Positions 21,968-64,000 of a stretch of DNA of 64,000 nt are shown piece after piece. Both the position numbers and the translations under genes were made by a program. Source of the stretch: Botryllus schlosseri (taxonomy: Eukaryota); contig CM119372.1 in assembly GCA_051294905.1 (NCBI GenBank), forward strand, positions 5,582,001 through 5,646,000. The letters are read 5' to 3'. Within the stretch, counting starts at the first letter, position 1; each line of letters opens with the position of its first letter. The notes beneath the pieces were generated by a model that saw only the letters and a program-made list of their open reading frames with translations, ran no database searches and was not told the DNA's origin.

Positions 21968-24900
21968 ATATTTCCAAGAGTACGACAGTTGATTTGTATA
22001 CTACTGATCCGTTGGAAACGTTTACTGCTTTATCGACACCCGCAGGTATTATTATATGTATTCCTTAAATTAGTCACGATGAAAAATATTAGGTATACAT
22101 ATATTATATATGTATAGCAGCTTCTTGTGTGTGTGCGTGTGTAAGCACGTCGCACTACCACCAACAATATGTGACAAATGGGACAACATCGAAGACAAAT
22201 ATGAAATATATCTTGATTGAACGTCATTGTGTTCAAACCGTCGGTCAGTGTTGGGATCAAGTCACTACCTCCGAGTCACAAGTCATCTCGAGTCATTGTA
22301 TATTTTGACTCGAGTCAAGTCAATCGATTTTGGAAAGTGACTCGAGTCGAGTCAAGTCACTCGATTTTTGGAGGTGACTCTAGTCAAGTCGAGTCAAGTC
22401 AAGACGAGTCAAGAGTCAAGTTGTATTTTCGAAACACGAGGCATGATTAAGTCATTGCATTTTGCTAGCTGTTTGATATTCAGATCGGTTCGCTATTCAT
22501 TATAAATCGAGGGATGAATATAGACTTATAGAGGTTAAATTAAGTTGCAAATAGGCGTTGTGCATCTCACGAATGCGTAGTACCCTATCCGCCAAAATAG
22601 AGAATAGAATACGAAACCGCAGGCAGGGGAAACGAATTGATATGATACATTATCCCACTACATATCCACGGTATACAATTTAAGCTGCGCCAATGCTTGA
22701 CTACAGTAATATAAACTTGTAAAGTATATTTAATATTGATTTAGATCACACAAGTGATCACCTAACCCTAATGGCCACTGACCAGTCTATAGAACAGAGA
22801 TCGATACCTTGTTATATTACTTTACTACTGCGAAAACGGACGCTCTAAGAGGTCAATGTGTTTGTGATAGACCAATGGAGGTTCAGTAAAACGCAAAATC
22901 ATTGAATGAATGTGATTTGTCACTCTCACAAGCCACACCAGCCTATCGAAAACAATCCGACTATTTGTAAAGAATACAGCGATTGTTATCGACACCGATT
23001 ACTTGATGATTTGAAATTGACTCGTAAAATTTTGCTCCGAGACACGAGTCAATCCGCATTTCTAAAACGCCGAGTCAAGCCAAGTCAAGTTATTTTTGCA
23101 AAGTGACTCGAGTCAAGTCAAGTCATACGAAAAAGGTGACTCGAGTCTGACTCGAGTCATCCCAACACTGCTATATATAAGTATCAAGTTATTATATACA
23201 TCGGATATGCTATGACTTCCCTTTTTGCAGTAGATGGTTGGAAATTGCTTCATTGCTACAAATTCAAATGCCAATAAAAGGCCTGTTTTCGTGATCTGAC
23301 ATACCGAACCACTGCAGTATACAGTGCGCAATTGCGAGACTATAGTGCTTGATATGTTGCAACCTAGGGTAATATATTAGAGCCACCTGGTCAATTGCCT
23401 GTAAGGTTGCGTTATAGCCAAGATCACCCAGTTCCTGATGTTATCCAGCTCAAACGTTTTTCAACTCGCGGACCGGTGGACTTTCAAAAAATTGAAATCA
23501 AACCCAAATGCCAAGTATGCAACCGTTTTTGCATGTATATGGTTCTAGAGAATGACATTTGGAGGGTTTTAATCGTTATTAGTTATATTCATAAAGGCAT
23601 CGATGCGATTTTACGGTAGTGAGTCTGCTGAGTCGAGGTAAAATTGCTTTGACAGATAAACGTGCTACCGCAGAGAGTCGTTTAAAGTCTTTCGCGCCGA
23701 AGGTCGTGGATTTAACCGACCATGCTAACTCGAAAAATATTCTTCTCTTCGGCAATATCGAGAGAAGAAGCATTTAGGCACCTTATCGAGCTAATTTGCT
23801 CATTTCCCACTACCACCAGACGTTGGGTACTCTGGCTACTACGAAAACAATGCGCCGCACGAAAACAGCTGACTACAGCTATAGCCTACCTGGCCATCGA
23901 CAAAATAGGGGTCGAAATAGCACTTTGTCTTCCCAGTCCCCTTAAAACCTTGGTCTTGGGCCCCCAGACCCCACAGTTGGATGGACGTCTTAATCAGTAC
24001 TTGTGAGCACGTTCATTCTACTCAGTGTAGGCAGAGGAGTTTGTGTAGCCTAAACACGCGAGGCGCGAAAATTTTCTATAATTCATGACTGAATCGGTCA
24101 ATAATATTGGTAATTGCATATATTTTGCTATAAATTTTGATTCTCTCAGAATTATCAGATTTTCCGGTAAATCAGAGTGAGGTGTCGTCTTGGAGAATTT
24201 ATGGCACGTAATTTATAATTAAGCGTATTTTGACGGGCCTATTGCAATAATTAATTCGTTCCATGCCTATTTCTATAAATCATGCGTATTTATCGGAGTA
24301 AGGGTCCTCAAATAATCAAAACATGTCGTGTCACGAAATCGGGCAAAGCGCGGCAGTTACGGTCCTGTACAAAATGAATGAATAGAAAACGAATGATCGT
24401 GCAAACTGCGTGGTTTAGCGAGTCAGCTCATGCTTATCGCTCGCATGACGTCAAAGGACACTGCTTGAACTTCAAGTCGAATCGAACAATTTTCCAGACC
24501 TATAATGTCACCTGGCAGACCGGCAGGAAAGTCGTCACGGACCGGCACTGGTCCGCGGACTGGCGGTTGAGAACCACTGATCTACCTTCATCAAAGCTTG
24601 ATGAATGAGGGATCGTTCTATTGCCACTGCTATAAATTGGAATTTTTTTAAAACTTTTGTGCTAAAGGTCAAACTGCATGAAAAGCTGTAGATACTGGTG
24701 TTCATCGAAAGCTATTAATAGCTTGGCCTCGTTATAAACGAGAAAGTCAAGAAAACGACATCTTATGTAGGCTACCTATGCTAAATACATTTTATACAAA
24801 ATAAACATATACGAATGTCGGATTACATGCGTAGCCTTGTAAGATGACCGAAGAATATTAGCAATAGTGTATTCTCGTTTAGCTCAATGTAGGAATCAGC

Positions 24901-26000
24901 ACCTTCTAAGATTGATTTCATGACGTCAAAATTGAACGCAATCGACTCTCCTGCAGACGCAATCGATAAGTGCCAATCATGTGAGACGCATAAACGAACT
25001 AGCGATTATATACCTGTTTCCGACATGAGTTGTCGTGTGCCAGCGGTGTAACGGTCATATATTTTATAGATGCCGACGAAACACTCGGAACTTCAGAAGC
25101 AACAAATATAGGTATGATCACATCCAAATATCACCCATTCTATCTCAAATGTGCATAGCATACTTTAGGTACAATAGTAGCGTGTTGCAATGTGCAATTG
25201 ATAGAAGATACGAAGTTTGTGTCATGCAAAATCAAGTTGTAACCTATTGAGAAATGTTATGCGACCCCAACTTTGGTCGCAGGATTGATTGGAGGGAAGA
25301 TGGTACATTTTCGTCTGCACGGTCGAGGTACTCCGACGATGAAGATGCGAATCAGCGATAAACCATTGTCACAGCTCCACGCTATACCGATGTGTGCTCA
25401 GTTGCCCGCCCCGTATAGAATTCACATAACAAAACCATAATCACCCTCATTAGAATGGGCTTCAGAAGAAGATGAAGAGACGTATAATTTATTGCGATAA
25501 AGTGACAGATCCCGTTCCTTTCAGGAGCAGCACCCATCTTCGAAACAAATAGTTATATTTGCACAGGATATATTCTCGGATAATTATCGTCAAATTACAA
25601 TAGAAAGATCTCGCAATTTGTAAATTGCGCTATTAGTTCTACGATGAAGTTGGAGCTGATACCACACATCTATCACGTAACAATACCATGTGTATGAACG
25701 CGAGGCGATCTGACGAAAGTTTTACGTCATAAAGTGGAATGAGGAGATCTGAATCACCTATCTGTAGGACCAAATGCTTTTATTTTATCATTTCAACTTG
25801 CTCATGAACATATTTATGCTGTATTCTGTGTACCGTAACGGAGTTATGATGCAGGAACACGATGTCAGTATGCTCCCCACACAAAAGATCAAAGCAGTAT
25901 CATCCCTGAATCGATATAATTGCGATAGAACAACCAGCATACCCTTTTCTATGGTAATCACAGACCGTGACGCTCCAGTTCCTTTTCATGTTTTGTTTTT

Positions 26001-26047
<47 letters not shown>

Positions 26048-27934
26048 AGGTCATTTGCTCCACGGCTTTAATTTAATTAATTTCATTTCATCAGGCCTTT
26101 GTAATGTTTCGCACGAATTCCATGCGCTCATACTTTGGGCTCGGCCCTTCACTCCGGGCTTTGGAAACACTGCTACGGCAGTTAAGTCAGCGATGAGGCG
26201 ACCAGAGAAACCTCTGAAACAAAGAAACTTGGTAGAGCCGAGACTCGAACCAACAACTATTCGAGTCGTGGTGATGTCGCTCTGCAGACTGCGCTACTCG
26301 CTTCTCCGAACAGTCCCTTATGAGAGATAACCGACCCCAATAGTTTTACAATACTAATAATAATATATTCTAATTTTATTTTCAGTTGTTATAATAATTC
26401 CGGTCATAATGGTGGCGCTACTGGTGGCATTGGTGGTTTTCTTATATTTCCGGTAATGTAGAGATTTGCTGCCGCTATATATGTAATGATGTGTATGACG
26501 AGACTTTTATTTTACAGACGCCGCTCACTCAGTGAAGAGGTAACAGGAAGTGCGACCGAAAAGTAAAAACAAATTCTTGAGTTCTGGTTTCAGTATAGAT
26601 GATCATAGTCTTTCCCAGATGTGGCCGTAGCAGTTACCATTATTACTAACAAAATAATTAAAAATAAATTTAGTGGAATGTTACTACTCTATAATTGCTT
26701 AGTTCATCCACATTCGGTATGCTTGATCGGACTTCTTTACATAAATATAGTGATTTAGCGCTGTCTGTCACTGAAATGATAGCTAATTGAAAATAGCAAC
26801 GATATCGAGTACATGAGTTATGGAATGTGAGCCATTCGTACGTATCAATTCAAATATCTTTCAACTACAGTTATACCCACAGTTTGCCCACTGCCCATGG
26901 GTACCCTATACCAGGAAGGAACGCACTAATATGTTTCCTTAAAATGTCAGATTCCACATACGTATCTAGATAGAGACTCTACACTACAGTTTACACATGA
27001 CAATTGAAGAACGACAACATTAGGGATTTGGAGATAGTGCCGTGGGCATGAAACATTCCATATACTTTACTTTGCAGGAACATCGTGCTCTATGACACTG
27101 TTGCACTGGAATCTACAACAGGTCAATGCAATGATAGCTATAGTCTGCCGCGTAAATCCGAACATCCCGTCGCGCCATATGAGTAACTATATACCAGACC
27201 AGGACAAATTGGAAACGAAAATCTTTGTTTAAATCTTAACAGATTCATTGACGATGCGATCGCGAAGTCTGGAGAATATCACACTTTGAAATTGGACACA
27301 GTTCCCATACCGTCTGACGGGGACGGATTATATAACAAGTAATCCATGTTCCGTTTCTCCTCTAGAATTGAATATTTAGGAAAATATTATAATAACGACG
27401 TAATGTTACCTGCATATTTGGAATACATTTGTTTTTGTGAACGAAGGTTAAACGAAGTAACTGGAAAACCATGGACCGCAAACACAAACGAAAATACAGC
27501 TAATAAAGACGACCCATATGCTGAGTAATTGAAGATGTTTTTATGAAGGGTAACCACAATGTTCGCAAGTACGGAATGCTTACGTATTTCAGGATTAAAG
27601 AGCCGACTGTCGCATCCCGAGAAGACAACAAGGATTCTACTGCCGATGATGACGATGACTGCACACGGTTAGCGATTGAAAAAATTCGATAGTTACTCAA
27701 CTTATAACGGAAGTAGCCTACACATTTTAGGTCTGAGGAGAAATCCAATGTAACTGGGGATCCTGTAGAATCGGAAACCGATGGACGATCGAATGATTAC
27801 TTCGAGTAACCTGACACTTCTCTTTACACGTGAACTCAAATAAGTCCTTTTGCTTTACATTCAGAATCAACCTGCCTAATACGGAGGATTTGTACGCGCG
27901 ACCAAACAAGCCGCAGAAGTCGACTAGTCAATAA
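21968..27934 (+). CDS. Receptor copy A (5'-partial, spliced): Ser/Thr-rich stalk, single TM helix and tyrosine-motif cytoplasmic tail of an IgSF-type receptor
   Basis: AG/GT-bounded exons keep one frame: 21968-22045 (DISKSTTVDLYTTDPLETFTALSTPA), 25070-25111 (DADETLGTSEATNI), 26386-26452 (TM VVIIIPVIMVALLVALVVFLYFR), 26518-26562 (RRSLSEEVTGSATEK), 27078-27182 (NIVLYDTVALESTTGQCNDSYSLPRKSEHPVAPYE), 27243-27338 (FIDDAIAKSGEYHTLKLDTVPIPSDGDGLYNK), 27447-27524 (LNEVTGKPWTANTNENTANKDDPYAE), 27593-27667 (IKEPTVASREDNKDSTADDDDDCTR), 27731-27805 (SEEKSNVTGDPVESETDGRSNDYFE), 27865-27934 (INLPNTEDLYARPNKPQKSTSQ*). Stalk, TM and first tail exons are paralogous to copy B. The Ig assignment comes from that paralogy. 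Confidence 0.85.
22246..23170 (+). mobile_element. hAT-like MITE, GAGTCAAGTC family
   Basis: TIR CAGTGTTGGGAT...ATCCCAACACTG with CTCGAGTCAAGT subterminal repeats. No TSD is visible in this copy. Confidence 0.85.
26004..26041. repeat. (CA)19 microsatellite
   Basis: Perfect CA run in the intron before the TM exon of copy A. Confidence 0.95.
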
Positions 27935-29294
27935 CGAGTCACCCGAACTTGTCCGAACAGAGGAAGTCAGTTGACAATTGTGAACTGGAATATTTATGAA
28001 GCGCGTATACATCAAGATTTATTTGAGTTTATTTGATAGGAATGAGGGAACTATACGACAGTCGTTTTCAGATAGATTAAATTGCAATCTCTAGATAGAT
28101 TTTGGTTCGTTTGAGGGCGGACTTTAATATACCCTTCGCTATGAGCGCGAACCTGTTAATATTAATTTGAAAGACTACTTTTTTGTAAGGATGCAACTGT
28201 GAACGTGTACAATACTTAAGGATCAACGTACAGTAGTTATCAAAAGCGCAATATTACCACATTGTCATTGTGCCGTTCCACAATATTATGGTGTCACAAT
28301 GACTTCATCCGAAATCCGGATTGTAACATTTCAATTAATTTAATTAATCAATTAACTTCCCTGAATACATTTTATACTGTAGAAATAGAAGTGTATACAT
28401 ATATGTGTATATTTAGTAAGGTTGACATATGTTCCATTCTTGAACTAGCTTTTTGAAATTTGCCAGAATCCGGATTTATTTTTTCGAAATGACACCATTT
28501 TTTATCGTCTGGAAAAGTCCTTTTCTACGACGCAAGATTGATCTCAGTTTATGTAAAGAGTTCCGGGTGCGAATCCGGACGGAGTCGGCTCGAAAATTCC
28601 TCCCCAAGTGTTGGAGGTTTATCTAGGGTCCTACTCGCCAGCTGATCGGCGTAAGTGGTGTCTTAACATGGCTAGAACTGGGCCGTGATACAAGTCGGTA
28701 AAATACGGAATCATAATCGAGAATATCGACATGGTGTAAAATTACCAATGTAGTCGAAACACCATGAATATCAAACAACAACATTTAAATTTACTTTTTT
28801 ACCACCGTGAAATAACGAGTAAATTGAAATTCGAGGAACTTCGATCGCGGATGTAGAGATCACGGAAATTTCTTTCAACCTACCTATGGGTTCTCAGGTT
28901 AGAATCTAACAATGTCCGTTTGCAAACAAGAACTTCTGATTCATCGACAATTGGACATCTTGGTTTTCGGTCAACATAAGGGCAGTGCTTTACGACCAAG
29001 GTTTTCTCGCTGTCGAACTTATTTTCCCCTTACTTAGTCAATTTGATCAGCAGTTGCATTTGCAGTGCCTTCTCGGTGTCCCGTGTTGGCCTAAACTTCA
29101 TATGTATTGGTGCGTCGTGGCGCGGTAATAGCTGACACCGAAATGCTCAATTCTATAAATCGTTGCTTTCTAAATTTGAAAGAAGTTGCATAAATTTTCA
29201 AAGAGATACTATATAATTTATGTTCATTCACGATATAATTTCGGGCCACCTTCGGGCTCTGCCCCTCTAATTGGGGGTTTGGAGAGCTGCAGTT

Positions 29295-32231
29295 CAGTGT
29301 TGGGATCAAGTCACTACCTTCGCGTCACGAGTCATTTCGAGTCATCGCACATTTTGACTCAAGTCAAGTCAAGTCAAGTCAATCGATTTTCGAAGGTGAC
29401 TCGAGTCAAGACAAGTCACTCGATTTTTGGAGGTGACTCGAGTCAAGTCGAGTCAAGTCAAGTCAAGTCACGAGTCAAGTCACAATTCAAGTCAAGTTGC
29501 CTTTTCGAAGTATGAGGCATGATTACATCATTGCATTTTGCTAGCTGTCTGAAATACAGACTGCGTGGTCATTGATTCTGAACCGATGAACGAATATGGA
29601 GTTGAATATACAAGCAAGAAGACGATATATCGCTCTCATATATACATAGAAATGCTAAACCACGGAAGTAATTACATAGCCTCAATTTAGTTTCCAGCCA
29701 ATATAGAGACTATAGAGAAACGAATTCATAAGATGCAATACATTACCAATTTACGAATTGATCAGTGGCGGCTCGTGACAATATCGGGTGGTGGGGCAAG
29801 GGCTGCAAGCGACTTTTTATCAAGATGACGTCACAATCGCGTTTTCCAACGTAAACAAGTAACTTAATGATGGTACGGTAACATGAATTTCCCGGCAACA
29901 GTGATTTTAACGTATATGTGCCACGAGACTCGAGAGGTCCGCCGGTGAGCTGTGACTTGAAGTATGGGAACTGCGTAAACGGCGTACGGAAAAAAGATTC
30001 AACACGATTCATGTTCGCACTAGGCCTGACTAATTATCTGCAGAAATGGAAATGACTATAACTCGGGAGATAGCGTAAGTCTAATTGGAAAGGTCAACGA
30101 GTTCGGACAGATACGCAATTGTTATCTCATAGATTGGGCCTGTCATATTGAATCCAAAACATCATTCTGAAGAACTAAGAATAGCAGCCTCGGAAATTCG
30201 GTCTCGGTACAGCATAGAAGATTTTGGCCTTGAAACTGGAGACTGTAACACGACACATACGGCTTTATTACTGTCTATAGGTCTGCTGCGAAATCGCCTT
30301 TGGAATATATATATTACCGAATAAATACGTGGATGAAAGCCTTAAACTTAGTACACTGTTACATGACATCATCGAGAAGTGTCATCATGGCCCTTTTCGG
30401 TATGGCGCACTGTCAAAATTAATGCGAACAGACCAACACCGAATTTTGCGTAAAATTTACTGAGGAATAGGCTGATCAAGTGATCAGCTGTTAGCCGCCA
30501 TCGAAAACTAAATAGCTATCGCGCTTGAGGGGGTTGTAAGCAAATGGCTTGACGGCCACAATTTCACGGTGAAATTGACATTGGAGGATATAATATCAAA
30601 GTAAATATTTGAATGGAATCTGAGAATGATATCATCATCTCAGTTAACGTTACCGCAGATACAACGGCTTTTGCGTGATATCCGCAATGCGTTGAAGGCT
30701 AAAGTGTCAGATCAGATCGGAGCGCATCTCTACCATGCTCGACCTTGATAACGAAATTACTGCCCTAATCATTGAGTGTCAACCTTGAGACTTGGCATAG
30801 CGTTCGATATAAAAATCAAGACATACTGTTCAAAAGCTTATGACGGATCTGGGTAAGGAGCATCGTTAAAATCAATAGAGACCAATACCGGCTTTGCGTA
30901 TAATCTGTTAGCGATAAATGAGAGTCAGCTCTCACTCGAATTAGGAAACGAAATTACCACTAACACAGTTCAGTGACAAACTTTACACTTGGTACAGCGT
31001 TCGATACTAACGTTAAGACTTACCGTGCCAAATGTCATAACCGATCTCAGTATTGAACATCGTCAAAATCAATGGATTGGATACCAATACCAGCTTTTGA
31101 GTAAAATCTGTTTGCGATACATGAAGGATCAGCACACACTCAACTTCGGAAACGGAATTACTACCCTAAACTTTAAGTAAAAACCCTGAAACTTGGGGCA
31201 GTGTTAAATACCACCATCACGACATGACATACCAAGTTTCAAGAGTTTTCATGGTGTGAAACACCATCAAAATCGACCTATACCACCAAAGGTCGACTAA
31301 ACGCATATGACGGTAACCGAGTTCAGCTATAGATACGATTGTTACATCACACCTTAAGGGCACAGAGCTAATTTGCCCCGGTTGCTCGGTCATTTTATGA
31401 ATAGGAGAGAGTAAATTACCGTTTCTTTATTGTGCGCGGCTTTGAGAGAATAGACAGTGAAAGCTTGTTATGAGCGCTACCGGGGCATGCCCCGGCTAGG
31501 CATTCGCAAAGCAAAAACACAGAAGAGAATTCGATTTTCGTAGAGACTTCGCTATATATGGGCATTTACAAGCGAAAGGACAAGAAGAATACGATTTTCG
31601 CTGTGGTTTCGGTATATATAGATTGGTGTGCGTCTATAAATGGTAAAGAATTGTTATTGAAGAGAATTTTAGGTGGGGCAATGCCCCAGTTGCCCTATAG
31701 GACGAGCCGCCACTGGAATTGATATGATACTATTCGAGTCTGCGCCAATGGTTGATGGCTATATTAACTATATTCGAATTCAATTTCAACGAAACAAGAG
31801 GCTTAGCTAAGGTATAAGAACAGAGAACAGAATTATACATTTTGCTATAACTACTATACTAGTTTACGAGAGCGTAAGCTGTATGCTTTGATCACTTCAT
31901 TTGTGGTCAATTTATTTGTGAGAGAACAATGAAGTTTCAGTAAAACGCACGATCATTGAATGAATGGTCGCTTTGACAGGTTACACCAGCGTTTCGCGAA
32001 CAATCCGACCACGTGCAAGATAGAGTGATTTTATTGACATCGATTGCTTGATGACTTGAAATTGACTCGTGAATTTAGCTCCGAGTCACGAGTCAATCCG
32101 CTTTTCTTGTACGCCGAGTCAAGTCAAGTCAAGTCATTTAAGCAAAGTGACTCGAGTAAAGTCAAGTCATACGAAAAAGGTGACTCGAGTCAGACTCGAG
32201 TCAAGTCATGACTCGAGTCATCCCAACACTG
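29295..32231 (+). mobile_element. hAT-like MITE, GAGTCAAGTC family, carrying a nested insertion
   Basis: Same TIRs; TSD CTGCAGTT. Confidence 0.9.
29763..31715. mobile_element. hAT-like element nested in 29295-32231
   Basis: TIR CAGTGGCGGCTCGT...ACGAGCCGCCACTG, TSD GAATTGAT. Internal degenerate ~200-bp tandem repeats at about 30640-31290. Confidence 0.9.
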
Positions 32232-40164: not shown

Positions 40165-40311
40165 CATTAGACAACGATGCATTGTTTATATAAATTGAAT
40201 TGACTGGTTGCAAGTAAATTGTAATATATGAAAAAGGTTCACACTGCAGAACCTACCAAGGCCCGTTTGTGAATGTGAACCTTTAAATTTTCGAGGTTAA
40301 CACACAGAGCG

Positions 40312-51950: not shown

Positions 51951-51985
51951 ACTGCAACTAACAATTGGCAATGTGTACTCAACAG

Positions 51986-52264
51986 ATGATCTTTCGTTTT
52001 CCGGTAACGATGACGATGGATGTAAAATTATCCCGCTGGGCACTAGAAGCGATGCTGAATGTGTATCACTATCAGCATATGATAAGGATTTAACGTGGTT
52101 GCACGACGGAAGGCCGGTGCCTAATCTTCCGTCAGTAGGCAAGCAACCTGTTCAACAAATGGGTGGTCGATTGCACTTTTTCACCTCCGCGACTGTTCAC
52201 GATTCTGGTGATTACTACTGCAGTTCTGGTCGAGACGAAAAACTGTTGCAAGTCTACATTGTAA
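51986..52264 (+). CDS. Immunoglobulin-domain exon Ig1
   Basis: cag|...|gtaagt, 279 nt, phase 1/1. The translation has the canonical Ig Cys (AECVS), Trp (LTWLHDG) and DSGDYYC (DxGxYxC) motif. Confidence 0.9.
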
Positions 52265-55200
52265 GTAAGTAAATAGAACAAACTCCCTTTTCTAGTTTAT
52301 AGAAATTTGGAATGACACACACCTTGGGCATTATAAACAATCAAGGTTATTTTTGATGACTTCCGGCTTTCGAACAATTTAGGAACATTTTCACTATTTC
52401 GACTGTCACCTACAGATGTGACCGAGAATACGGCAGAGGAATTGTGTAATACTGATCCATTGGAAACGTCTACTGGTGCCACCACTGCTATTTCGACATC
52501 CGCAGGTATTATTGTTTGAATTCATTATATAGGTCACGATGACAAATATCAGGCGTAGGCTACATATAGATGTACACGATGTGTGTGCGAATTGGGTAGT
52601 ATGGATGAGGAGGGGATGGGGGTCGGAGGTTGGTGCCGTGGTAGTGAACTGCCGCCAAAGTGTACACGAAAGGGACCATATTGAATGTCAATTTTACTCA
52701 AACTCTTGAATATATATATGTTGGGTTGTTAAAATACCGAATGTGTCATGAGTTGTCATTTCTGCAGTAGTTGATTGGACATTGTTCTAATTAGAGGGGG
52801 CAGGTTTGGATACCAACGACATGACGCTTTTCGCTATGTGGCTTACCGATAACCCGTGGTATATTCCTCATGTACAGTACACGCGCGAGACTAGTGCTAG
52901 ACATAGCGATGCGATCCTTGAAAGTTCCTGGTTCGTGTGAACACTTGTTTATCTACAGGGCAGTTTTTTAGTGTGACTTGACTTGATTCGAGTCACATTG
53001 CAAAAATGACTTGACTTGTCTTGACTCGACGCTTCCGAAATGTGGATTGAATTGTGACTCGGAGCAAAAATTACGAGTCAATTTCAAATCATCAAGTAAC
53101 GGCGTCGATAAAAATGGCTGATTTGCATATATTCGGATTGTTCGCGATACGCTGGTGTGACGTGTGATATGAGCAATCACTCAATGATTGTGCGTATTAC
53201 TGAGCCTCCATTTTTCTATCACAAATAAATTGACCGCAAACGAAGTGATCCGAGCTTACAGCTTACATGTCGTAAACTAGTAGTAAAGTAATCTTATGGC
53301 AAAGTATCCATCTCTGTTCTATAGATTGTAGGCGATATCCACTTGAACCAAACCTCTTGAATGATTTAAACCGTATTTTAATACTGTATGTAAGTTTATA
53401 CTCGTCGACCATCGGCGCAAGCTTAAATTGTATCTCAAATGGGTGCAGGTGGCTAGTGCATTGCATCATATCGATTCGTTTCAACTTTCTGAGGTTTCGT
53501 ATTCTATTCTCTATTTTGGCTGATAATTATAGACTGCGGCTATACAGTTACTTTTAGGTAGTTTAGCAATTCTACGTATGCGTGTACGATAACACGCCTT
53601 TTTGCATGTTTATTTAACTGTATATTCGTCTCTTCATTCAAAATAAATGGCAACTTTCTATAACAGCTATTAAAACGCAATGACGTAATATATGCCCCGT
53701 ACTGTGACAAATCAACTTGACTTGAATTGACTCGACTTGACTCGAGTCACTTTCAAAAATCGATTGACTTGACTTGTCAAAATGTGCAATGACTCGAGAT
53801 GACTCTTGACTCGAAGGTAGTGACTCGATCCCAACACTGCTAAAGGGTACTATGGGAAAACGAATTTGAACACGAGCATTTGACTTCACATGACGTCTCA
53901 TTGCTAATTTGAAACACCCTGCATACTTTGTTATGGCATTTCTAACGGTACCAGACGATAAGCATTATGAGTAATTAGGTATATTTGCGATGAATTCAAT
54001 CGAGTTGTTCAATAGCGCAGGCCTTCAAACAATTCAGGAACTTTGTTAACTTTGCTCACAGATATAGCCGAAAAAACGACGTTGGGTTTGCATACTTCTG
54101 ATCCCTTGGAAGCGTCTACCAGTTCCGCAACTGCTATTGCAACACCCGCAGGTATTATTGTATGTATTCAATAAATTAGTCACGATGATGAAGATGATAT
54201 AAGCTTAAATATATGGTTATAGATGGTTTCTATACTTGTATGTTTACGTGTGTGTGTTTGCGTGTGCTGTGTCGGTATACCACACAATATGCGAAATGGG
54301 ACATTATTGAAGACAAATATGAAATATTCCTTGATTGAACGCCATTTTTATTCTTACCGTCGACTATATATAAGTATAAGGATGTTATAAATGTCGATGA
54401 TGATATACCGAATTTAGTTCATTTATGATGTTCGTATTTAGGTATTCTATTTTTTTGAAATAATTCCTGACCTGCCAAAACGCTATAGTTAGCGGAACCG
54501 GCGAGAGGAAAATACAAAATTAAAGCGAATAAATAAATATAATAATAAGTTCAGTTGCGAGGTAGCTCTGAAAACTCAATAATTCCAGAGGAGGAAAATT
54601 GAAATGAATTACCAAAAACAAGTTAAAAAATCGCTATAAACAATGAAAATTTAATAATTTAACTCGAAATAAATGAACAGAATTTTCAAATTTCGGAGGG
54701 AAATTTTCACAATATTTGCTTCAACAGAAAAAACAAACAGGTCGTGCGCGTGGATAAACTCAAGTCAAAAACTTCTCGCTACATCAGCGGGCAGCATCAT
54801 GGACTCATTATATAGACTAGTGAAACGATATTAAAAACTGCTGAAAGGAAATGGCTAATTGTGAGGTCCAACAAAGTCAAGTACGTCATGATATCATCCA
54901 TTGAATTTCACTGTAATTCAACCTATAACAATCCAACTAATAACAGTCGCCGTGTATTTTCAAGTAGGATTGGTTATGTAATTGCGGATTATATGCTCTA
55001 GGACAGTGATCCTCAACCTTTCTGTCTTCGCGGATCACTTTGGACTGTCATGGACCCCAACACACAATTTTAGTTCAAATCTAGCTCTATTATCGTGCAA
55101 CCGTCATCTGTCTTGTGTAATTATTATTTTAAAGCGAATTCTGTAGCTGCGTGGCCGTGTCTTGAGAATTTTTGCCGTCGATTTGATACGAACGAATGCC

Positions 55201-58200
55201 GAAAATACATTTCCACAAAGTTAGGTGATGGCGAATACACGTAACTCTTCCGACGACTCCTTTGAGTATGATCGCAACATATATGGCACCAATAAAACGC
55301 CTAGCCTAATAATTTCTATATCTATAGCAGCTCATATCGAAGGTATTCCGGAATAATGGCTATCGATATCACAGGAGAATATGGATTTCTGCCAAAAGGT
55401 TTTTCCCAATACCCGAAAAACTTCTCTAAACAGTGATATGTTTGAATAAGTAGGCTATTGGCAATTTAGGAAAAAAAATTCGCTCGGAAGAATATTTCAT
55501 CTCCGACGACCAGTCTGTTTATGACCAAGTTTCAGCAGTTATGAAGCGAAAGTGCTTCGTGACTTCTCTAATTTAAAATAAAATACGTATTAGTTTACCA
55601 ACCATTTTGCAAATTTGAAGGTTTCGTGGCCCCCCTGAAAATGCTTCGCGGACCCCGGCTGAGACGACTGCTCTAGGAAAACTCTAGAACAGTCGTAAGT
55701 TCTTAACCAGGGCACGCCTCTCAGAATTCGAGGAGCACCAGAGATTCATTTACTTCCTGGTTTTACCATTGTTAATAAAGTAGCACATCATCATCATTGC
55801 ATAATGGTTAGGAACACAGTTGTGATATCACCTTACTAATTGGCATCGTCACTAGCTGACGCAACCACCGCAAGTTACTTACACGGAGAATTATCAAACG
55901 GCTGTTCTTTGTTCAATTATTGGTTTGAAATACAACATTGACCGACATTGCGTATATGATCTTAATTACTTGGCAATTGGTTAGTCAGAAAGTTCGGCAT
56001 CGATTTTAGAATATCATTTGCGGTACAGCCTATATAGGGCTATCTTACAATATCGGACGATGTTTTAAAATAAGAATATATTGGAAAGACATTAATTTGT
56101 GACTATCATCATTTGCGCATTATCGGTATGTGCGACACAGATATCAGTACGGCAATCAACGGCAACAGCAGATATAAGTACGACGTTCAATACACCAATC
56201 AACGGCACTTTTGCCTTTTTTTGAAGTTCCTATTGACTGTGGAAAACGTTGTATGATTGGTTTACGTTAACTGTATATGTCATTTTCATTCAGCAAGCCT
56301 GTCACCACTCTATAACGAAGTCTTTTACTGTAGCACATTTACGCAAGGATTTATAGCAAATTTACTTGTAACAAGGTTCTGATAGTTTATATAGTTTATT
56401 TTATATATAATACTTTATGTATGGTAATTCATACTTTTCATATCGAAATGAATGTCCGGCTCAGTGTCTAACAAAATGTGTGCCTTGAATCATGGCATTT
56501 TTATCGTTTTGGAATATTGCTAAACATAGTCCAGTTGTTGTGCATCGCTGCCATGCCATGCGCTTCGAGGTGCGTCTGAAATCAATTCCATATAACTGAG
56601 AAGGACACGTTGGCTTTTAAATTTTTAATATATTAACGAAACGTAACTCGTGGTTGCATTTTATTTATCGTAGGTCAGCAAAGCGTTTTGAAATATCTTG
56701 CTAAACAAGAAATAATCTTCCGAAATATAATTTTTCTTTTGCAAATATATGCATTTTATTTCATGGAAAGCTGATAGTAAGTTGCTTTTGTTCACAATGA
56801 AGCCTACTGCAGATTCTAACCATCCGTAAATACATACATAGAGGATATGAATGTGGAATCGCAACCAACGTTGTTGACTGGATAATATCTACATTTGATC
56901 ATCTGTACCATGAGGCCCTCCGCCAGCAACACTGTATTTGCTATCGTAACAATCCTATCACGACATGTCCTTGCTCAAGGTTAGCAATATATATATAGCC
57001 TACAATAAACATGAGACGGATCGATGGAGTACCAATCCGAAATATAAGAATCCAAATATAATTGCAGTCTTCTAGAACGCTAGCTGGCTCATTTGTAATC
57101 ACAATGAACACATAATGGTACTGCTCCTTTGTTGTAGATTTGGTCGGCGCGAGATCTGGAGTACTTACATTTGAGATCAAGAATTGAGCTTGTAGAAAAG
57201 TCAATAACCGCGGCTATAGTCTGTTGCTCATCTACAGGGCGCGTTCAGACACGCAATTCGTACCTTCTGACACTCTCATCTTCATCGAACTACAGATAAG
57301 ATATTCGTCATCGAATCCAATGTATATATAATAGGCTTGTTCAAAAATAACTCATTTTTCCGGTTTCCGGGGATTCACTGACCAAATTTGGCTCGATCCC
57401 AACTGGTAGATGAGAATATACAGGAGTTTACATATTTTGAAGTTATTATAAAATATAATAAAGATTTTTTTATAATGACTTCAAAACCCCATGATGCTGG
57501 TAAGTTGTCTAAAAGAACGATGCTTACCAATTTTTGCTCACTTCCAACCGGTAGAGCCTAAGTTATTGCATTTGACAATTTTGAATTTGCAAAAATATCC
57601 TGGACGGTGGGCAATCGCAGAATTTTGAATGAAAAACTCAAATAAAGTCGCTTCCACGGGTTGGAATTGCGTCAAATCTGTTTTGCACCGTTATTTAGAC
57701 AACTCGACAATTTCTTGGCGTTAACAGTGAAATTTGAAAAGAAAATTCAAAATCGGTCAAAATGAAATAAAAAGTTATAAACTCCTGTGCGTTCAAATTT
57801 ACCGGCACTATGGCTATTACTCCAAAATTAAAAAAAAGATGCAACTGCTCCTTCGGGTGTAAGCATTACCGGTTATTTGCGACAGAAAAGGAGAGGCTAA
57901 GGCCAATGTTCCCTCTAATTTTTCAGGAGTCTGCGCAAACACGCCAACTCACTGCGCAGGCCCTCGGACAACAGTGCGCAACCACCCCCCAATAGGGTGA
58001 TAAACCCAACTACTGGGGGGCTTCGCCCCCCAGACCCCCCACACGGCTCTAGGCTTCTTCCGGTACCTATCATGTGCATTGGGTGCCGATCTAGTAGTAG
58101 CGTCCCTAAACGCGCGAAGCGCAAAAAAAATTCTATAATTTATTATTGCATCGGCCAACATAACCGGGAATTGCATATATGTTGCTATCAATTTTTATCC

Positions 58201-61200
58201 TCTCCCTGCTCACATAATCAGATTTACCGGTAGAGCTGATCCAGTGAGGTGTGTTGGAATAGATAGGCCCTCTAAATAATAATAAAACATCTTCGGACGT
58301 ACCCGTTGATATAATGACTTCGTTACATGATGCTATTTCGTGACCCCCTATCTGCTATGTCAAAAGATATTTAAATCGCCATAACTTACTAAAGTAAAAT
58401 ACGTACACGATTTCAACTTGGTATTTCTTAACTGGAAAATAATGTTCCCTCGATATGGCATTTGTCTTGTTGTGGGACTCGGATCGCCAGGACGGGAACA
58501 TTCGGCGCCAGCCATTTAGGCGCCCATGGACATGGACATGGACATGGACAATTACACAAATATTTGTATATATTGAAGTTTTCGGTCAGCACCGAAGCAG
58601 TCTTTTTCGCCCAACGTTTTCTCGCTGCTGATCGTTCTGGCGCACTTCTTGGATTCGCATGTTACACAGCCTTTAATTTCATATGTCTTGGCGCGTCATG
58701 GTGCGGTAATGGCCGACGCCCAACTGCCCATTTCTGTATATCATGCCTAATTTTTTGGGGAAAGGTTACCCAATAATCAGATATCTGACAATAATAAAAC
58801 GCGCTTAGCGCGAAAAAAAAAATCCTGAAAAATTTCAAAAAATACATCATGATTTATGTTAATTCTCGAAATAATCCAATCGGAGGGTTTGCGGTGCGAA
58901 AGTTACGGTCCTGAGTAAATCTTACGCAATGTTCATGCCACGCGAAGAAGACTATCATTTGTTAATTTCTCGCAGATTACCTTCGAGCTAGCCTATTGTT
59001 GTTTAAAACTTTGTTAAACCATGTTATTTCGCCATTCCCAGAAAATAATGCGCTATAGAAATGATATCAGTATCGTTCACGTGTACCAGGCCATACTAAA
59101 ATAATATCTTCCGTGAGGAGCGGGTGATTATGAACTGTAATTTCTTCACGGAGCGCAATAGTTACCTTCGCAGGGCGCACTTGTACCTCGGTTTCAGACT
59201 TCAGTGATAACACTATTTGGCCCTGGCAATGTTCCATCTTAATACTCACGAATCTGCGCGCCTGCGTGGTCCATTGGACAACAGTGCGCAACAACTTAAA
59301 AAAAAAACATCATTTCGGATTTTTTTGTGCGCATCGTAGATTTTCTGTGCGCAGAGACCGTTTCAGCACTGCGCATTTGCGCACGTGCGCAGCTTAGAGG
59401 GAACATTGGCTAAGGCCCTAACTACATCTTTATACCCCTGACGACGTAAGATGCTATGGTAGAGTTGCTTTGGAATGAGTCAATATCCATTTTACTATAT
59501 TCATTCCCTCTGCTGATATTATCTTTTCACGAATTTATATATGTTTTGTTTTATATTTCTACATATAAATATATCTGTTTGCAACGAACAACACTTTCAT
59601 ATTCAAATTCTGTACCACATGGAACCTATATATCTTTTTGTTGAATATCTACTACGTCATACATCTATACTACAACTCCTTCACTTAATTACATCTTACC
59701 TTTTATCCACTACTTTTCCAGATTTTATGTTACATTATATCTACCCAAAATACCAATCTTTGGATTTTTGTCGGTAGGGTTAAGCCCACCTATGACAGCT
59801 TACGGAGGAAGATCCGTTGGCTAAAACACCAAATGTCTTGTTTATCGCTATATCTTAACGACATATCTACAATTAAAACTCCAACAAGAACTTTGGTGGA
59901 TCCATCGCGCTGTCTCTATACTGCGCCCTTACGGGCGCAGCTCATAGTTTTTGTGGCTATGCTGCCTTCGGCAGCTTATCACTGAGCCAAATTGGATGCA
60001 CAGCGTTTAATTAATCAAGTTAACAATTTAATCAGTAAATCTCTGAAATCTAGAAAAAAAGTTATTTTTTGACAACACTAATCTTCTTTAACATATACAT
60101 AATAGTAGGCTACATTATATTATGTTAAAGATATAGGGGTTTTATTCTAGCAATAACACATTTACTCGCAAACAATAGATTTGGCGACAATACCATGATT
60201 GGTCAATTGCATTCAGTTTGTTAGAAATGTGCTGGATAATCCAAGCGTTTTTCCATTTACTTGGACTTACTTTACGGGCCGGATGAAGCCTTCTGACGGA
60301 CCGGACGCTGCCTGCGAGTCGTATATTTGACACCCCTGATCTAATATTTATAATTACTACGCTAGAGTTAGGACACTACCTACTGCTAAATGTTTCAGTG
60401 GTGATGTAATGCATTTCTTTGTTCGATGGAGTTCTGTGCTATAAATCAACGCAATGTATGCTTGGAATTAACGCGTTTGGTATAACTTATTACCTTGAAT
60501 ACATTTGCAGTCGTTCGATATAAACAGATCAGAACTACAGCTAAAAAATGACAACGCGTTCCCGATTGCAGGTAGGGTTGCATTTAAAATAAAGATCAAT
60601 TTAAACAAACCTGTTCAAAACATGGCCCTTGCTTAAAACATGTTTTTTCTAGCCATGACGTCACCAATCTTTAAATGTGACGTCATATTGAATTGGTATT
60701 GAAAATTAAAAATACAGGATGAATATGGCTTCTTCGACGAAAATGACTTCCGACCACAATCATAAACAGACCAAAAATATCCTTAACCAGGACTATCGTT
60801 ATGCAGCATTTTTATGGTCATCATCAGAACATCCATTCCTTACTAATTATTATATATAACTACTTGCTATAACTGTCGAACCAACGACGATTTCGAGGGT
60901 TCCAGCCCCTCCATATCGTATACGTCGACTATATTGGGTGCAAATCGTCCATAGGCTCATACTGCATGTTTTCAAAAAGGATTTGCACAATATGGCAACA
61001 CAATAATTTCATATGCACAATAACTATAGAACGTCTGAAGAGAAAACACCTTTTTTTTAAAAAGGCATTTGTTTAAAACATTGTTTAATCAGACATGTTT
61101 TAAAAACAAATTGTTTTAAAACACCGTTTGTTTTAAATGTAACCCTAATTACAGGGGATCTTTCGTTCAACGGGGATGATGGTAATGGATGTAAAACCAT

Positions 61201-63630
61201 TCCTCTCGGCACTGGCGGCACGGTGGGTTGTCAGTCATCATCAAACCAAGTTTTAACCTGGTGGCTTGACGGAACGCAGGTGTCTGAGTATAATACAGCA
61301 GAACCTATTAGACAAATAAACGGACAATTATACATTTACGGCTACGCGACTGTGGAAGATTCTGGCGATTACTACTGCAAGTCCCAAAATGAGGAGAAAT
61401 TATTGAAAGTCTGGATTGTAGGTAAGTGAAGAACGTTCGGTCTGGTTTTGCTGAGGCAACCAACTCGACGGGGAATTGTATGGTATATTTCCTAATTTTT
61501 ATTTATTTTGCCAAATTTCACTGTTTTTTGTGTAAGTTTCATGATGACGAACATATATTACAATCATTGCGCTAGCGCGAACCTGATAAGAACTAAAGTT
61601 GCGCTTCACTGACCAAACCAACTCACTTTTATTGTCGTCATGAGATTTCGAACATTAGAAGCAATTGTGTATATTTAAGATGAATTCGAATGATTGAAGA
61701 ACAATTTCATCATATTCATTTTCGTTTGCAGATATGTCTGATAGCACCACAGTTGATTTGTGTGTTACTGATCCTTCGACACCCACACGTCCCACAGGTA
61801 TTATTGCATATTAAGGCAGTCGCGGTGATATGGTGATATGGTGAATCACGACAAAATTCAAGTGAAAAGTGTGTAAATCAGGAGTCGAACGAAAGTAATA
61901 ACCTTTTTTTAGACAACTCCTCTAATTTCCAAGCAAAAATATCAAATTCCGTTGTCTTGATCAGCTGACTTTTCTGAATTAGTTAAAGTGTCCCCCTTTC
62001 CCGATTACAAAATATGGTTACCTTGCAACAACTGACGATAACTTTCATACATTTCGCAGACGACAGCGTCACTTCTGGGACTTCAGAAGAATCAGATATA
62101 GGTATGATCAAAACCAGCTATCATGTGCTACATCGAAAAGGTGCAACATGCGTAATTTTGTAGGCAATGAACAGGACAATGAATTTTTATGTATTCATCA
62201 GTGTTGGGATGACTCGAGTCATGACTTGACTCGAGTCACACTCGAGTCACCTTTTTCGTATGACTTGACTTGACTCGAGTCACTTTGTCAAAATGACTTG
62301 ACTTGACTTGACTCGGCGTATCAGAAATGTGGATTGACTCGTGACTCGAAGCAAAAATCACGAGTCAATTTCACGTCATTAAGCACTCGATGTCGATAAA
62401 AATCACTGTATCTTGCAATCGGATTGTTCGCAAAACGCTAGTGTAACCCGTGAGATCGACCAATCATTCAATGATCGTGCGTTTTACTGAGCCTCCATTG
62501 TTCTCTCACAAATAAATTGACCGCTTACGAAGTGATCGAAGCTTACAGCTTACGCTATCGTAAACTAGTATTGTAATGTATTTTAATAGAAAAATGTCTA
62601 TTACTGTTCTCTGTACCTGAACCAAACCTCTTTCTTGAAATTAAATTCGAAGATAGTTTATATAGTCCTCGACCATTGGCGCAGGCTCGAATTGTATCAT
62701 ATTCATTTGTAAATGTGTCATGTATTGCATCTTATCAATTCGTTTCTCTATTCTCTATATTGGCTGGTAATTATATACTGAGGCTTTGCCGTTATACTTG
62801 CGTAGTTCAGCATTTCTACGTATATGTAAGCGATACAAGCGCCGTCTTACGTGTATATTTACCTTCATATTCGTTCATCGGTTCAAAATCAATGACCAGT
62901 TAATCTGTATTTCAGACAGCTAGCAAAATGCAATGGCGTAGGCATTCGGAAAATGCAACTTGACTTGAAATGTGACTTGACTCGTGACTTGACTTGACTT
63001 GACTCGACTTGACTCGAGTCACCTTCGAAAATCGATTGACTTGACTTGACTCGAGTCAAAATGTGCAATGACTCGAAATGACTCGTAACTCGAAGGTAGT
63101 GACTTGATCCCAACACTGGTATTCATCGCTAGCTTCACGTAGAAATAATACCTTCTGAAATTGATTTTGTGACGACGATGAAACACAAAACTGTAGTCTC
63201 CAACAACTGACTATAACTTTCATATATTTCGCAAACGAAAACGACACATCTGGAACTTCTGGAGAAACAAATATAGGTATGATAGAAACCGGATATCACA
63301 TGTTACATCGAAAAGGTGCAACATAGAATAATGAGTGGCGCATCGAGTAAAAAACACGTAGCATCCTATAATGAACAACATTCCTATCAATCGAGAAATT
63401 CGAATCATATGTAGTTCGTCGTCATTCAATTGACATACATTCCAATTGTATTTTCAGTTGTAATCATAGTTCCGGTGATATTGGTCGCGCTTCTGGTGGC
63501 ATTGCTGGTTTTCTTATATTTCCGGTAATGTATAAATGTCCTGTCGCTAAGTTACGACATGTGTGACGACACTTTCATTTTACAGACGCCGCTCTCTCGG
63601 TGAAGAAGTAACAAGTAGTGCGGGTGAAAA
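51986..63630 (+). CDS. Receptor copy B (partial, spliced): Ig - stalk - stalk - Ig - stalk - stalk - TM - start of tail
   Basis: Phase-1 exons: 51986-52264 (Ig1), 52416-52505 (NVTENTAEELCNTDPLETSTGATTAISTSA), 54062-54151 (DIAEKTTLGLHTSDPLEASTSSATAIATPA), 61155-61421 (Ig2), 61732-61797 (DMSDSTTVDLCVTDPSTPTRPT), 62060-62101 (DDSVTSGTSEESDI). Then 63458-63524 (TM VVIIVPVILVALLVALLVFLYFR) and 63586-63630 (RRSLGEEVTSSAGE). The tail should continue beyond 64000 because intron 63631-64000 matches 26563-26940. No confident start exon was found. It could be two gene units rather than one. Confidence 0.75.
52961..53839 (-). mobile_element. hAT-like MITE, GAGTCAAGTC family, one end degraded
   Basis: Reverse-complement copy; TSD CTACAGGG/CTAAAGGG (7/8). 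Confidence 0.8.
55004..55670. mobile_element. hAT (Charlie-type) MITE
   Basis: CAGTGATCCTCAAC...GCTGAGACGACTG, TSD CTCTAGGA. Confidence 0.8.
57332..60080. mobile_element. TIR element hosting a nested hAT
   Basis: TAGGCTTGTTCAAAAATAAC...GTTATTTTTTGACAACACTA imperfect TIRs; a related start lies at about 11728. No TSD was seen. Confidence 0.5.
57904..59408. mobile_element. hAT-like element
   Basis: TIR CAATGTTCCCTCTAA...TTAGAGGGAACATTG, TSD GCTAAGGC. Confidence 0.9.
60573..61147 (-). mobile_element. hAT-like MITE, TAGGGTTGCATTT family, inserted at the Ig2 splice acceptor
   Basis: TAGGGTTGCATTTAAAA...TTTTAAATGTAACCCTA, TSD ATTGCAGG/ATTACAGG (7/8). Opposite orientation to 51101-51950. Confidence 0.9.
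61155..61421 (+). CDS. Immunoglobulin-domain exon Ig2
   Basis: cag|...|gtaagt, 267 nt, phase 1/1. GDLSFNGDDGNGCKTIPLGTGGTVGCQSSSNQVLTWWLDG...ATVEDSGDYYCKSQNEEKLLKVWIV; paralogous to Ig1. Confidence 0.9.
62199..63118 (-). mobile_element. hAT-like MITE, GAGTCAAGTC family
   Basis: TIR CAGTGTTGGGAT...ATCCCAACACTG, TSD GTATTCAT. Confidence 0.9.
63235..63276 (+). pseudogene. Duplicated 42-nt stalk exon with a dead acceptor (pseudo-exon)
   Basis: Copy of exons 62060-62101 and 25070-25111 (DENDTSGTSGETNI, donor gtatga intact). The upstream sequence is tttcgcaa instead of tttcgcag. Confidence 0.7.
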
Positions 63631-64000
63631 GTAAAAACGAATTCTTGAGTTCTGGTTTCAGTATAATTGATAATAGTCATTCTTAGATGAGGCCGAAGCA
63701 ATCACCACTATTACAGAAAAAAATTAAAATGAAATTTGGCGGAATGATACCATTATATAATTGCTTAGTTCATGGACATCTGTTATGATCGATCGGACTT
63801 CTTCATTGTTAAATATAGTGGTTTAGCATTTTCTGTCACAGAAATGATAGATTTAATTGAGCATAGCAACGCTATCGACTACAAGTTGTGGAATGTTAGC
63901 CATTCGCACATATAAATTCAAATATCTTTCAACGACAGACCCACAGTGTCGCCATTGTCCTTGGGTAGCATATAACAACAAGGAACGCACGGATTTGTCT

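Follow-up and report, generated by a model that had tools for sequence, protein, structure and literature searches.

A Tandem Cluster of Single-Ig Receptor-Like Genes with ITAM-Like and ITIM-Type Tail Motifs in Botryllus schlosseri

We examined a stretch of 64,000 nucleotides (nt) of the Botryllus schlosseri genome (C2:5582001-5646000, + strand numbering, from contig CM119372.1 of the 495.5-Mb, 219-contig assembly GCA_051294905.1; hereafter the window) for genes of the immunoglobulin (Ig) superfamily (IgSF). We interpret the window as containing three modules, X, E, and F, of a lineage-restricted multigene family that would encode small type I membrane proteins, most likely acting in phosphotyrosine signaling, an interpretation to which we give somewhat better than an even chance. 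The gene model itself is well supported: F and X define a previously unannotated, lineage-restricted family of single-Ig receptors, whose tails mix motifs like the immunoreceptor tyrosine-based activation motif (ITAM) with, in one copy, the corresponding inhibition motif (ITIM). A role in immunity or allorecognition is plausible by analogy with receptors of similar layout.

Gene F and its partial copy X

Gene F (56910-64941) has 12 exons running from ATG to TAA, with a coding length of 1014 nt (337 amino acids, aa), no internal stop, and AG/GT at all internal boundaries. The gene continues past the window end, so that six of its seven tail exons lie outside the window. The predicted F protein begins with a signal peptide of 23 aa, followed by a single I-set Ig domain (approximately 89 aa), a Ser/Thr/Pro stalk of 22 aa containing one Cys, an uncharged transmembrane (TM) segment, and a tail of approximately 180 aa. 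Its exons, all on the + strand, are as follows.

56910-56979, +: F leader exon; ATG, donor AAG|GTTAGC; aligned with the other cluster leaders
61155-61421, +: F Ig exon; DSGDYYC, I-set type, phase 1-1
61732-61797, +: F stalk exon; 66 nt, one Cys, AG/GT, phase 1-1; 78% nt identity to the X stalk over 76 nt
63458-63524, +: F TM exon; hydropathy 3.51, AG/GT
63586-63630, +: F tail exon e1, the only F tail exon inside the window
64131-64941, +: F tail exons e2-e7, beyond the window end (L008:131-235, 296-391, 458-535, 604-678, 738-812, 872-941)

The TM and tail portion of F is found a second time within the window, in copy X. The X block at 26363-28271 (continuing at 35666-35880) is approximately 80% identical to the F block at 63435-65455. 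According to DNA and protein searches, X and F are the only copies of the TM-plus-tail block in the genome, and a protein search for exon e3 recovered only these 2 copies. The exon bounds of the TM exon and of e1-e7, derived from the F-X alignment, are given here for X.

26386-26452, +: X TM exon; phase 1 to 2, hydropathy 3.45 over 19 aa, AG/GT; 88% nt identity to the F TM exon
26518-26562, +: X tail exon e1; 45 nt, basic stop-transfer stretch, phase 2-2, a possible cassette; AG/GT in X and F, 82% identity without gaps
27078-27182, +: X tail exon e2; carries the ITIM VLYDTV and, at its end, the first Tyr of the ITAM-like pair; 89.5% identity between the copies, both with AG/GT
27243-27338, +: X tail exon e3; carries the rest of YEFI, then YHTL and, at its end, the Tyr of YNKL; 93.8% identity to F, AG/GT
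27447-27524, +: X tail exon e4; ends in the DDPY of the hemITAM-like DDPYAEI; 97.4% identity to F, AG/GT
27593-27667, +: X tail exon e5; acidic DDDDD stretch; 89.3% identity, AG/GT with a weak donor GTTA
27731-27805, +: X tail exon e6; the Tyr of YFEI at its end; 89.3% identity, AG/GT; F counterpart recovered by a blind exon finder
27865-27934, +: X last coding exon e7; LYARP, stop codon as in F; 94.3% identity

When joined, the TM and tail exons of F and X give the same open 203-codon frame with the same stop and with AG/GT at every exon, and all seven tail exons are phase 2-2. Identity between the two copies is approximately 91% in the exons overall (82-97% for individual exons), compared to 0.824 over 866 nt of intron. 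There are no insertions or deletions (indels) in 611 exon nt vs 11 in 873 intron nt; the chance of an indel-free exon alignment is 0.00045, rising to 0.021 if constraint were absent from just one copy. Substitutions at codon positions 1/2/3 number 13/16/26, and the differences between X and F in e2 are mostly at third positions. For the TM and tail together the nonsynonymous rate (dN) is 0.075 and the synonymous rate (dS) 0.176 (dN/dS 0.42), with the tails 84% identical in protein. The F and X exons are beyond chance, because the F frame is open for 1014 nt, AG/GT is kept in both copies, and the exons are free of indels.

Tyrosine motifs of the tail

The F tail contains eight tyrosines, found in EIYDTV, DSY, PYEFI, EYHTL, LYNKL, DDPYAEI, NYFEI, and LYARP. 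Conservation between F and X extends to all eight, of which five or six are in a YxxL/I/V context. The pair YEFI-x9-YHTL is present in both copies. The classical ITAM consensus consists of two YxxL/I motifs separated by 6-8 residues, and we call the pair ITAM-like because its spacing is one residue over the classical range. A canonical ITIM ([S/I/V/L]xYxx[I/V/L]) is present in X as VLYDTV. An earlier sequence-only reading of this DNA had proposed tails with ITIM plus ITAM-like motifs; the ITAM-like part holds for both copies and the ITIM part for X, F having EIYDTV at that position. DDPYAEI, found in both F and X, is hemITAM-like by the DDxYxxL/I definition quoted in the available text of PMC12582321.

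In four of the YxxL/I sites an intron falls between the residue following the Tyr and the hydrophobic residue, which suggests that the tail grew by duplication of Tyr-motif exons. Because the tail exons are all frame-neutral, exon skipping could remove or recombine single motifs. We propose a mechanism in which the Ig domain would bind ligand and Src-type kinases would then phosphorylate the tail. YEFI-x9-YHTL and DDPYAEI may recruit Syk-type kinases or other SH2 proteins, and the ITIM VLYDTV of X may recruit SHP/SHIP-type phosphatases, with splicing of the frame-neutral exons potentially adding or dropping single motifs.

In paired receptors such as KIR, Ly49, and SIRP, the activating member combines a short tail with a charged residue in the TM, and the inhibitory member has an ITIM tail. 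The paired activating/inhibitory architecture suggested by the earlier reading does not describe F and X: neither TM segment carries a charge, and the two tails are long and, as noted above, closely similar.

The Ig domain

The Ig exons of the family support an assignment to the IgSF at the level of sequence and predicted structure. Cys25, Trp35, Cys74, and Y72/Y73 are invariant in 10/10 family sequences, as is a third Cys at position 12. An AlphaFold2 prediction for the F Ig exon from 10 sequences gave a best model of 8 strands with a predicted local distance difference test score (pLDDT) of 90.2 and a predicted template modeling score of 0.82. In a Foldseek search this model had 500 or more PDB matches at E <= 0.001, with I-set/C2 domains at the top. 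Top folds were Robo1 Ig5 (E 7.7e-6), the Ig-C2 domain D1 of FGFR2 (template modeling score, TM-score, 0.81 on target), and NCAM Ig1 (TM-score 0.78 on query); receptor-type protein tyrosine phosphatases (RPTP) sigma/delta and titin were also matched. As modeled, the family domain has the features of an IgSF I-set/C2 domain, namely the B-F Cys pair, the strand-C Trp, and the strand-F D-x-G-x-Y-x-C.

Profile searches gave a similar picture. The profile of the eight family sequences matched PDB sequences of titin (3.1e-7), FcgRIII (4.6e-6), and IL-1R1, and those of CD3 gamma/epsilon more weakly (4.6e-4); Pfam Ig_5, the CD3 epsilon Ig family, gave a weak match (E 0.0018). Searched against a library of 1.84 billion proteins, the Ig profile matched 269 proteins at E <= 0.001. 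Three of these matches were inspected, one being a family fragment (P0006) and two being multi-Ig proteins (P0063 and P0077). The ESM Atlas neighbors listed were nearly all ig/I-set/V-set clusters, with scores of 0.92-0.94.

Relatives of the family are few. A protein word-index search gave no annotated homologue, with none of 40 candidates scored for the F Ig exon and none of 5 for the open reading frame (ORF) of an X tail exon. A family-profile search of 1274 candidates identified P0151 and P0006 alone as family members, and among 150 listed of the 269 profile matches only P0006 is a short protein covering the whole Ig exon; its cluster has 1 member and no name. P0151 and P0006 are unnamed fragments of 95-96 aa from short assembly contigs, one of them 56-61% and the other 56-71% identical to the eight paralogues; from these values neither fragment is identical to any of the eight copies. 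The earlier statement that no named family could be assigned is borne out, these two fragments being the only relatives found.

Organization of the cluster

A six-frame scan of the window for the motif D[ST][GA].Y.C identified exactly two sites, both on the + strand and both DSGDYYC, the motif noted in the sequence-only reading; these are the Ig exons of E and F. A genome search with the ORF of the F exon gave 41 matches at E <= 0.001, of which 8 span a complete Ig exon (E 2.9e-82 to 5.6e-21); the remaining 33 cover only the first approximately 30 query residues, corresponding to a repeat upstream of the F exon. Seven Ig copies (A-G) lie on the + strand of C2 between 5,520,951 and 5,707,404 (approximately 186 kb), and copy H lies on C14. 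The reading frame is intact in 8/8 Ig exons. The Ig exons share the acceptor ACAG|AT and the phase-1 donor (A/G)|GT(A/G)AGT and are thus phase 1-1, the usual layout of Ig exons. Seven leader exons on C2, each with an ATG, a short hydrophobic core, and a phase-1 donor, were identified by scan and similarity and align well with one another. These data substantiate the proposed tandem IgSF cluster, and the paralogue count for which the earlier reading called comes to eight Ig exons in the genome, with a TM-plus-tail block in X and F only.

Stalk exons in the window number four, the first starting at 21968, the coordinate at which the region marked out by the sequence-only reading begins. They are 66-90 nt long, Ser/Thr/Pro-rich, and phase 1-1, with a conserved donor CAG|GTATTA. 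A single Cys is present in E stalk 1, in the F stalk, and, outside the window, in the stalks of G and H; in the X stalk Tyr takes its place. The remaining features of the X and E modules are as follows.

19715-19816, +: possible relic of a decayed Ig exon, lying upstream of the X stalk; a weak match (E 0.013) with 40% identity over 35 aa and an in-frame stop
21968-22045, +: X stalk exon; 78 nt, open, phase 1-1, AG/GT; 72-74% nt identity to the E stalk exons
49214-49286, +: E leader exon; ATG, hydrophobic core, phase-1 donor; found by leader scan, aligns with the 6 other cluster leaders
51986-52264, +: E Ig exon; DSGDYYC, phase 1-1; Pfam Ig_3 E 7e-4, under the cut-off
52416-52505, +: E stalk exon 1; 90 nt, one Cys, AG/GT, open in phase 1; 86% nt identity to the first stalk of paralogue C
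54062-54151, +: E stalk exon 2; 90 nt, AG/GT, open in phase 1; 84% nt identity to the second stalk of paralogue C

The relic is the best match of a tblastn search with the 8 Ig exons against window positions -2800 to 26400.

The best similarities among the Ig exons pair them as B-D, C-E, and A-F, and C and E are 80-85% identical in nt with introns included. Pairwise dN/dS of the Ig exons is 0.32-0.78 in 26/28 pairs, 1.0 for B-C, and 2.5 for B-D. B and D (L002:5782-6048 and L007:6589-6855) are the youngest pair, with a dN of 0.091 and a dS of 0.036, a difference that is not significant (Fisher p 0.18). Identity for B-D is 0.926 in the exon vs 0.811 in the flanks, and the synonymous divergence is far under that of the flanking introns, a pattern in the aligned sequences that could reflect exon-limited gene conversion combined with diversifying change.

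TM exons are fewer than Ig exons. A hydropathy scan of the + strand of 214 kb of C2 plus the C14 locus identified only three convincing TM exons, those of X and F, whose hydropathy is the highest in the 214 kb, and a third at L003:6611-6692; three GT-repeat or low-complexity ORFs were left out of this count. No TM exon was found for A, C, or E, even at lower hydropathy thresholds. The third TM exon (C2:5538611-5538692) lies downstream of A and B and has the phases of X and F, 1 in and 2 out, with a different sequence; for its tail only one candidate Tyr-rich phase 2-2 exon was found, 3 kb further on. Near position 5345 of L010 (C2:5671345, window +89345) is a hydrophobic ORF that ends TATTTCCG like the F and X TM exons and is followed by TT, not GT. 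Judged by its sequence, this ORF may be a decayed fourth TM exon, downstream of the seventh leader at approximately window +73064.

The order of the C2 cluster, two Ig modules followed by one TM block, repeated three times, raises the question of whether the TM blocks are shared. Under such an arrangement, leader, Ig, and stalk modules, each with its own promoter, would use a common downstream TM and tail by means of alternative first exons, as in the protocadherin and UGT1A loci; E and F would use 63458-64941, C and D would use X, and A and B would use the third TM exon. We consider this unlikely. It would account for the presence of 7 leader and 7 Ig exons with only 3 strong TM exons, for the two-plus-one order, for the modules in which no TM exon was found, and for the constraint upon the TM and tail of X, which has no intact Ig exon within 25 kb. 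The ectodomain exons are all phase 1-1, the stalk exons all keep the donor CAG|GTATTA, and E stalk 2 joins the F TM exon in frame with 0 internal stops. This frame fit, however, follows automatically from the phases, and conservation of the donor is uninformative given how similar C and E are. There is no RNA evidence of such joints, the modules lacking a TM exon could instead encode secreted forms (read-through of the stalk donor stops within 5-7 codons), and the B-D, C-E, and A-F similarities do not fit a simple duplication of two-plus-one units. If the arrangement did operate, one signaling tail would serve alternative ligand-binding heads, and the frame-neutral exons would tune it motif by motif.

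The possibility of a non-immune function

The fold and selection data also bear upon whether the family could be a lineage-specific I-set adhesion or developmental signaling protein, with Tyr motifs used for endocytosis (YxxPhi) or adaptor docking. The closest folds (Robo1, FGFR2, NCAM, RPTP sigma/delta, and titin) belong to proteins of adhesion, guidance, or muscle, YxxL/I is also compatible with the AP-2 sorting signal, and the dN/dS values indicate that the Ig exons are mostly under purifying selection. Such a function nevertheless appears improbable when set against the eight tyrosines conserved between F and X, which include YxxI-x9-YxxL, DDxYxxI, and the canonical ITIM of X, and against the traits of tandem birth and death shown by the cluster, which include copy variation, the decayed relic, and unnamed relatives of just 56-71% identity. 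The B-D value of 2.5 points in the same direction, and is not significant.

Points against the interpretation, expression, and decay

Several observations weigh against interpreting the window as modules of a signaling receptor family. Module E consists of a leader, an Ig exon, and two stalk exons, and lacks a TM exon ahead of the F leader. In X no intact Ig exon lies inside the window; the nearest one is D, 25 kb upstream and outside it. The sequence-only reading had reported at least two paralogues with Ig, stalk, TM, and tail; all of these exon types are present, but with E and X incomplete and F cut by the window end, the window does not contain two complete genes. Pfam scores of the F and E Ig exons are under the gathering cut-offs (F: Ig_3 21.7 bits for a cut-off of 30, Ig_2 17.6 for 27, I-set 13.7 for 23.7; E: Ig_3 20.5). 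The other four AlphaFold2 models had pLDDT values of 37-47, and a first run with 8 sequences, which was not used, gave 48.7. F lacks a canonical ITIM, as EIYDTV fails the consensus at position -2, and the ITAM-like spacing of 9 in F and X is outside the classical 6-8, although inside a looser range of 6-12. The F-X dN/dS of 0.42 would by itself allow one relaxed copy. Finally, the e4 acceptor is weak in F (better in X) and the e5 donor is weak, so that a shorter tail formed by read-through after the acidic stretch is possible.

RNA data provide a further caution. Three bulk RNA runs (X6, X9, and X10) were used, with 6-13% of each run read and reads placed on 44001-64000. Depth in all three was 0 over 52005-52671 (E Ig and stalk) and over 63344-64000 (F TM), and was at most 0.1 in the bin 61343-62009. 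No predicted junction was present among 15 listed of 100 read joints, and no RNA record was listed for 51900-61500. Nearly all of the reads placed from these runs and from run X1 come from repeats, with 0.94-0.97 of them running on into unlike sequence. Run X1, the kind of which is only guessed, yielded a 389-nt contig that matches 61152-61419 only, with 3 differences over 268 nt. At either end the match falls within 3 nt of the F Ig exon boundary, and 121 letters of the contig extend beyond the donor without continuing into the intron. From this alignment, X1 hints at a spliced F transcript, and the contig may represent one.

The near-zero exon depth in the three RNA runs is what would be predicted if the cluster were a graveyard of partial duplicates in repeat-rich DNA that has lost expression. 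The incomplete E and X modules, the relic at 19715-19816, the loss of the GT donor from the candidate TM exon near window +89345, and the repeats surrounding the exons could be read in the same way. We find this very improbable, given that 8/8 Ig exons are open and that F is open over 12 exons. In addition, X keeps every AG/GT and has 0 indels in 611 nt vs 11 in the introns (a chance of 0.021 even if only X were free to decay), F-X substitutions are in excess at third positions, and the X1 contig, with the reservation on run kind noted above, respects both ends of the F Ig exon.

Sequence setting of the cluster

The window has a GC content of 36-45% and contains 56 internal repeat pairs, with interspersed repeats throughout; the region from 28 to 49 kb is mostly repeats without recognizable genes. 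Genes of the window use GT-AG introns with donors GTAAC/GTAAT rather than GTAAGT, because of which strict splice-site scoring gave no exons and the exon finder was then relaxed. A Pfam scan of 73 ORFs of at least 80 aa (both strands, whole window) identified no Sushi or other Ig family, and none of 138 + strand ORFs of 40-79 aa in 19298-28453 and 49072-64000 matched any family at E <= 0.01. Shared-looking blocks downstream of F and G and upstream of A were rejected as exons and classed as repeats because stops fill all their frames.

Repeats of several kinds were observed. An interspersed repeat of approximately 300-900 bp, with copies 68-85% identical, adjoins stalk exons; it translates as Ser/Gln/Val-rich pseudo-ORFs that could pass for a Ser-rich coding stalk, and it has very high read depth in X1, X6, X9, and X10. 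A 1.3-kb segment occurs twice in the stretch without genes that separates X from E; its copies are 78% identical, with approximately 1 kb between them. The repeat at 44001-44667 has very high depth on both strands in all RNA runs and, at 44577-44601, loose ends that resemble poly-A; its appearance is that of an abundant expressed retroelement or a family resembling short interspersed elements (SINE-like).

12074-12403, 22245-23159, 29295-29758, 31722-32234, 52965-53842, and 62196-63121: copies of the 300-900 bp Ser/Gln/Val repeat
33135-33470 and 35058-35438: di-/hexanucleotide microsatellites with long GVGVGV/TPTPTP/SDSDSD ORFs, not genes
35879-37169 and 38104-39355: the duplicated 1.3-kb segment
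44001-44667: the repeat of high read depth

Comparison with known receptor systems

The closest known system by description is the fester co-receptor (FcoR) of Botryllus schlosseri itself (Rodriguez-Valbuena et al. 2025, PMC12582321), the architecture of which had been put forward for this cluster. According to the available text of that paper, FcoR has an Ig-Sushi-Ig-Ig ectodomain and is arranged head-to-head with FF genes (Ig-Sushi-3TM). As described there, FcoR resembles the family reported here in being a type I IgSF membrane protein of tandem, copy-variable clusters in a non-vertebrate chordate. The resemblance extends to a single TM followed by a tail of many small exons with ITIM, hemITAM-like DDxYxxL/I, and plain YxxI/L/V motifs, and to a motif content that varies among close copies, as the ITIM of X, absent from F, does here. 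The FcoR tail is characterized in the same text by a single TM and at least two tyrosine motifs, and both F and X have these. The ectodomain differs from the one described for FcoR, consisting of one I-set Ig, with no Sushi or second Ig found in ORF scans. Every family module lies on the + strand, and no gene resembling FF was seen, the minus-strand scan being of ORFs of at least 80 aa. The paired core-2 motif [A/D]VYxxV of the FcoR description is absent here, and the YxxI-x9-YxxL pair found here is not reported for FcoR in the available text of PMC12582321; four motifs of the F/X family are absent from the text of one of its supplementary files. By architecture, as FcoR is described in that text, the F/X family is not FcoR.

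Signaling through ITAM-type tails has a precedent in ascidians. A hemocyte membrane glycoprotein of Halocynthia roretzi (Takahashi et al. 1997 J Biol Chem, as summarized in the available text of PMC5465252) has two ITAMs, is tyrosine-phosphorylated, and acts in phagocytosis and hemocyte aggregation; from this account such signaling therefore exists in ascidians. The likeness to F and X, drawn from that description only, is that of an ascidian membrane protein with ITAM-type motifs in its tail. The Hydractinia Alr genes, as described in the available text of PMC9546547, also form a tandem cluster of IgSF membrane proteins in an invertebrate, and ITAM and ITIM domains are mentioned on Hydractinia candidate allorecognition genes in that of PMC12065747. 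Alr proteins differ, by description, in being cnidarian and in having unusual V-set-like domains, several per protein.

Among vertebrate receptors, the CD79a/b and CD3 chains share with F the layout of one small Ig, a short Cys stalk, a TM, and ITAM halves in different exons. Differences are that the CD3 gamma/epsilon match (4.6e-4) is no better than those to titin, FcgRIII, and IL-1R, that the TM here lacks an acidic residue and the stalk a CxxC motif, and that the tail is far longer, with many extra motifs. Descent of this single-Ig, Cys-stalk, split-ITAM layout from a common source with CD79/CD3 is extremely improbable. No evidence of homology beyond the Ig fold was found. PECAM-1, SIRP, CEACAM1, and the teleost NITR/NILT receptors resemble F and X in combining an Ig ectodomain and an uncharged TM with Tyr motifs on short, skippable cytoplasmic exons, and in PECAM-1 such exons are spliced in or out. 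These receptors differ in having V-set or several Ig domains, no sequence relationship to the F/X family was found, and the presence of inhibitory-type and activating-type motifs on one tail would be unusual for them. NILT is also mentioned in the available text of PMC12582321.

IgSF receptors with ITIM/ITAM-type tails are common in vertebrate natural killer (NK), B-cell, and T-cell signaling, and are found among the allorecognition receptors of colonial sea squirts. Genes such as F and X escape both ORF-based and homology-based annotation. What sets the F/X family apart from the known systems is its minimal single-Ig ectodomain, the combination of ITAM-like, hemITAM-like, and, in one copy, ITIM motifs on one tail, and the placement of these motifs across frame-neutral junctions. 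If expressed, the family would offer a compact test case for how activating and inhibitory Tyr signals could be combined and tuned by splicing before adaptive immunity.

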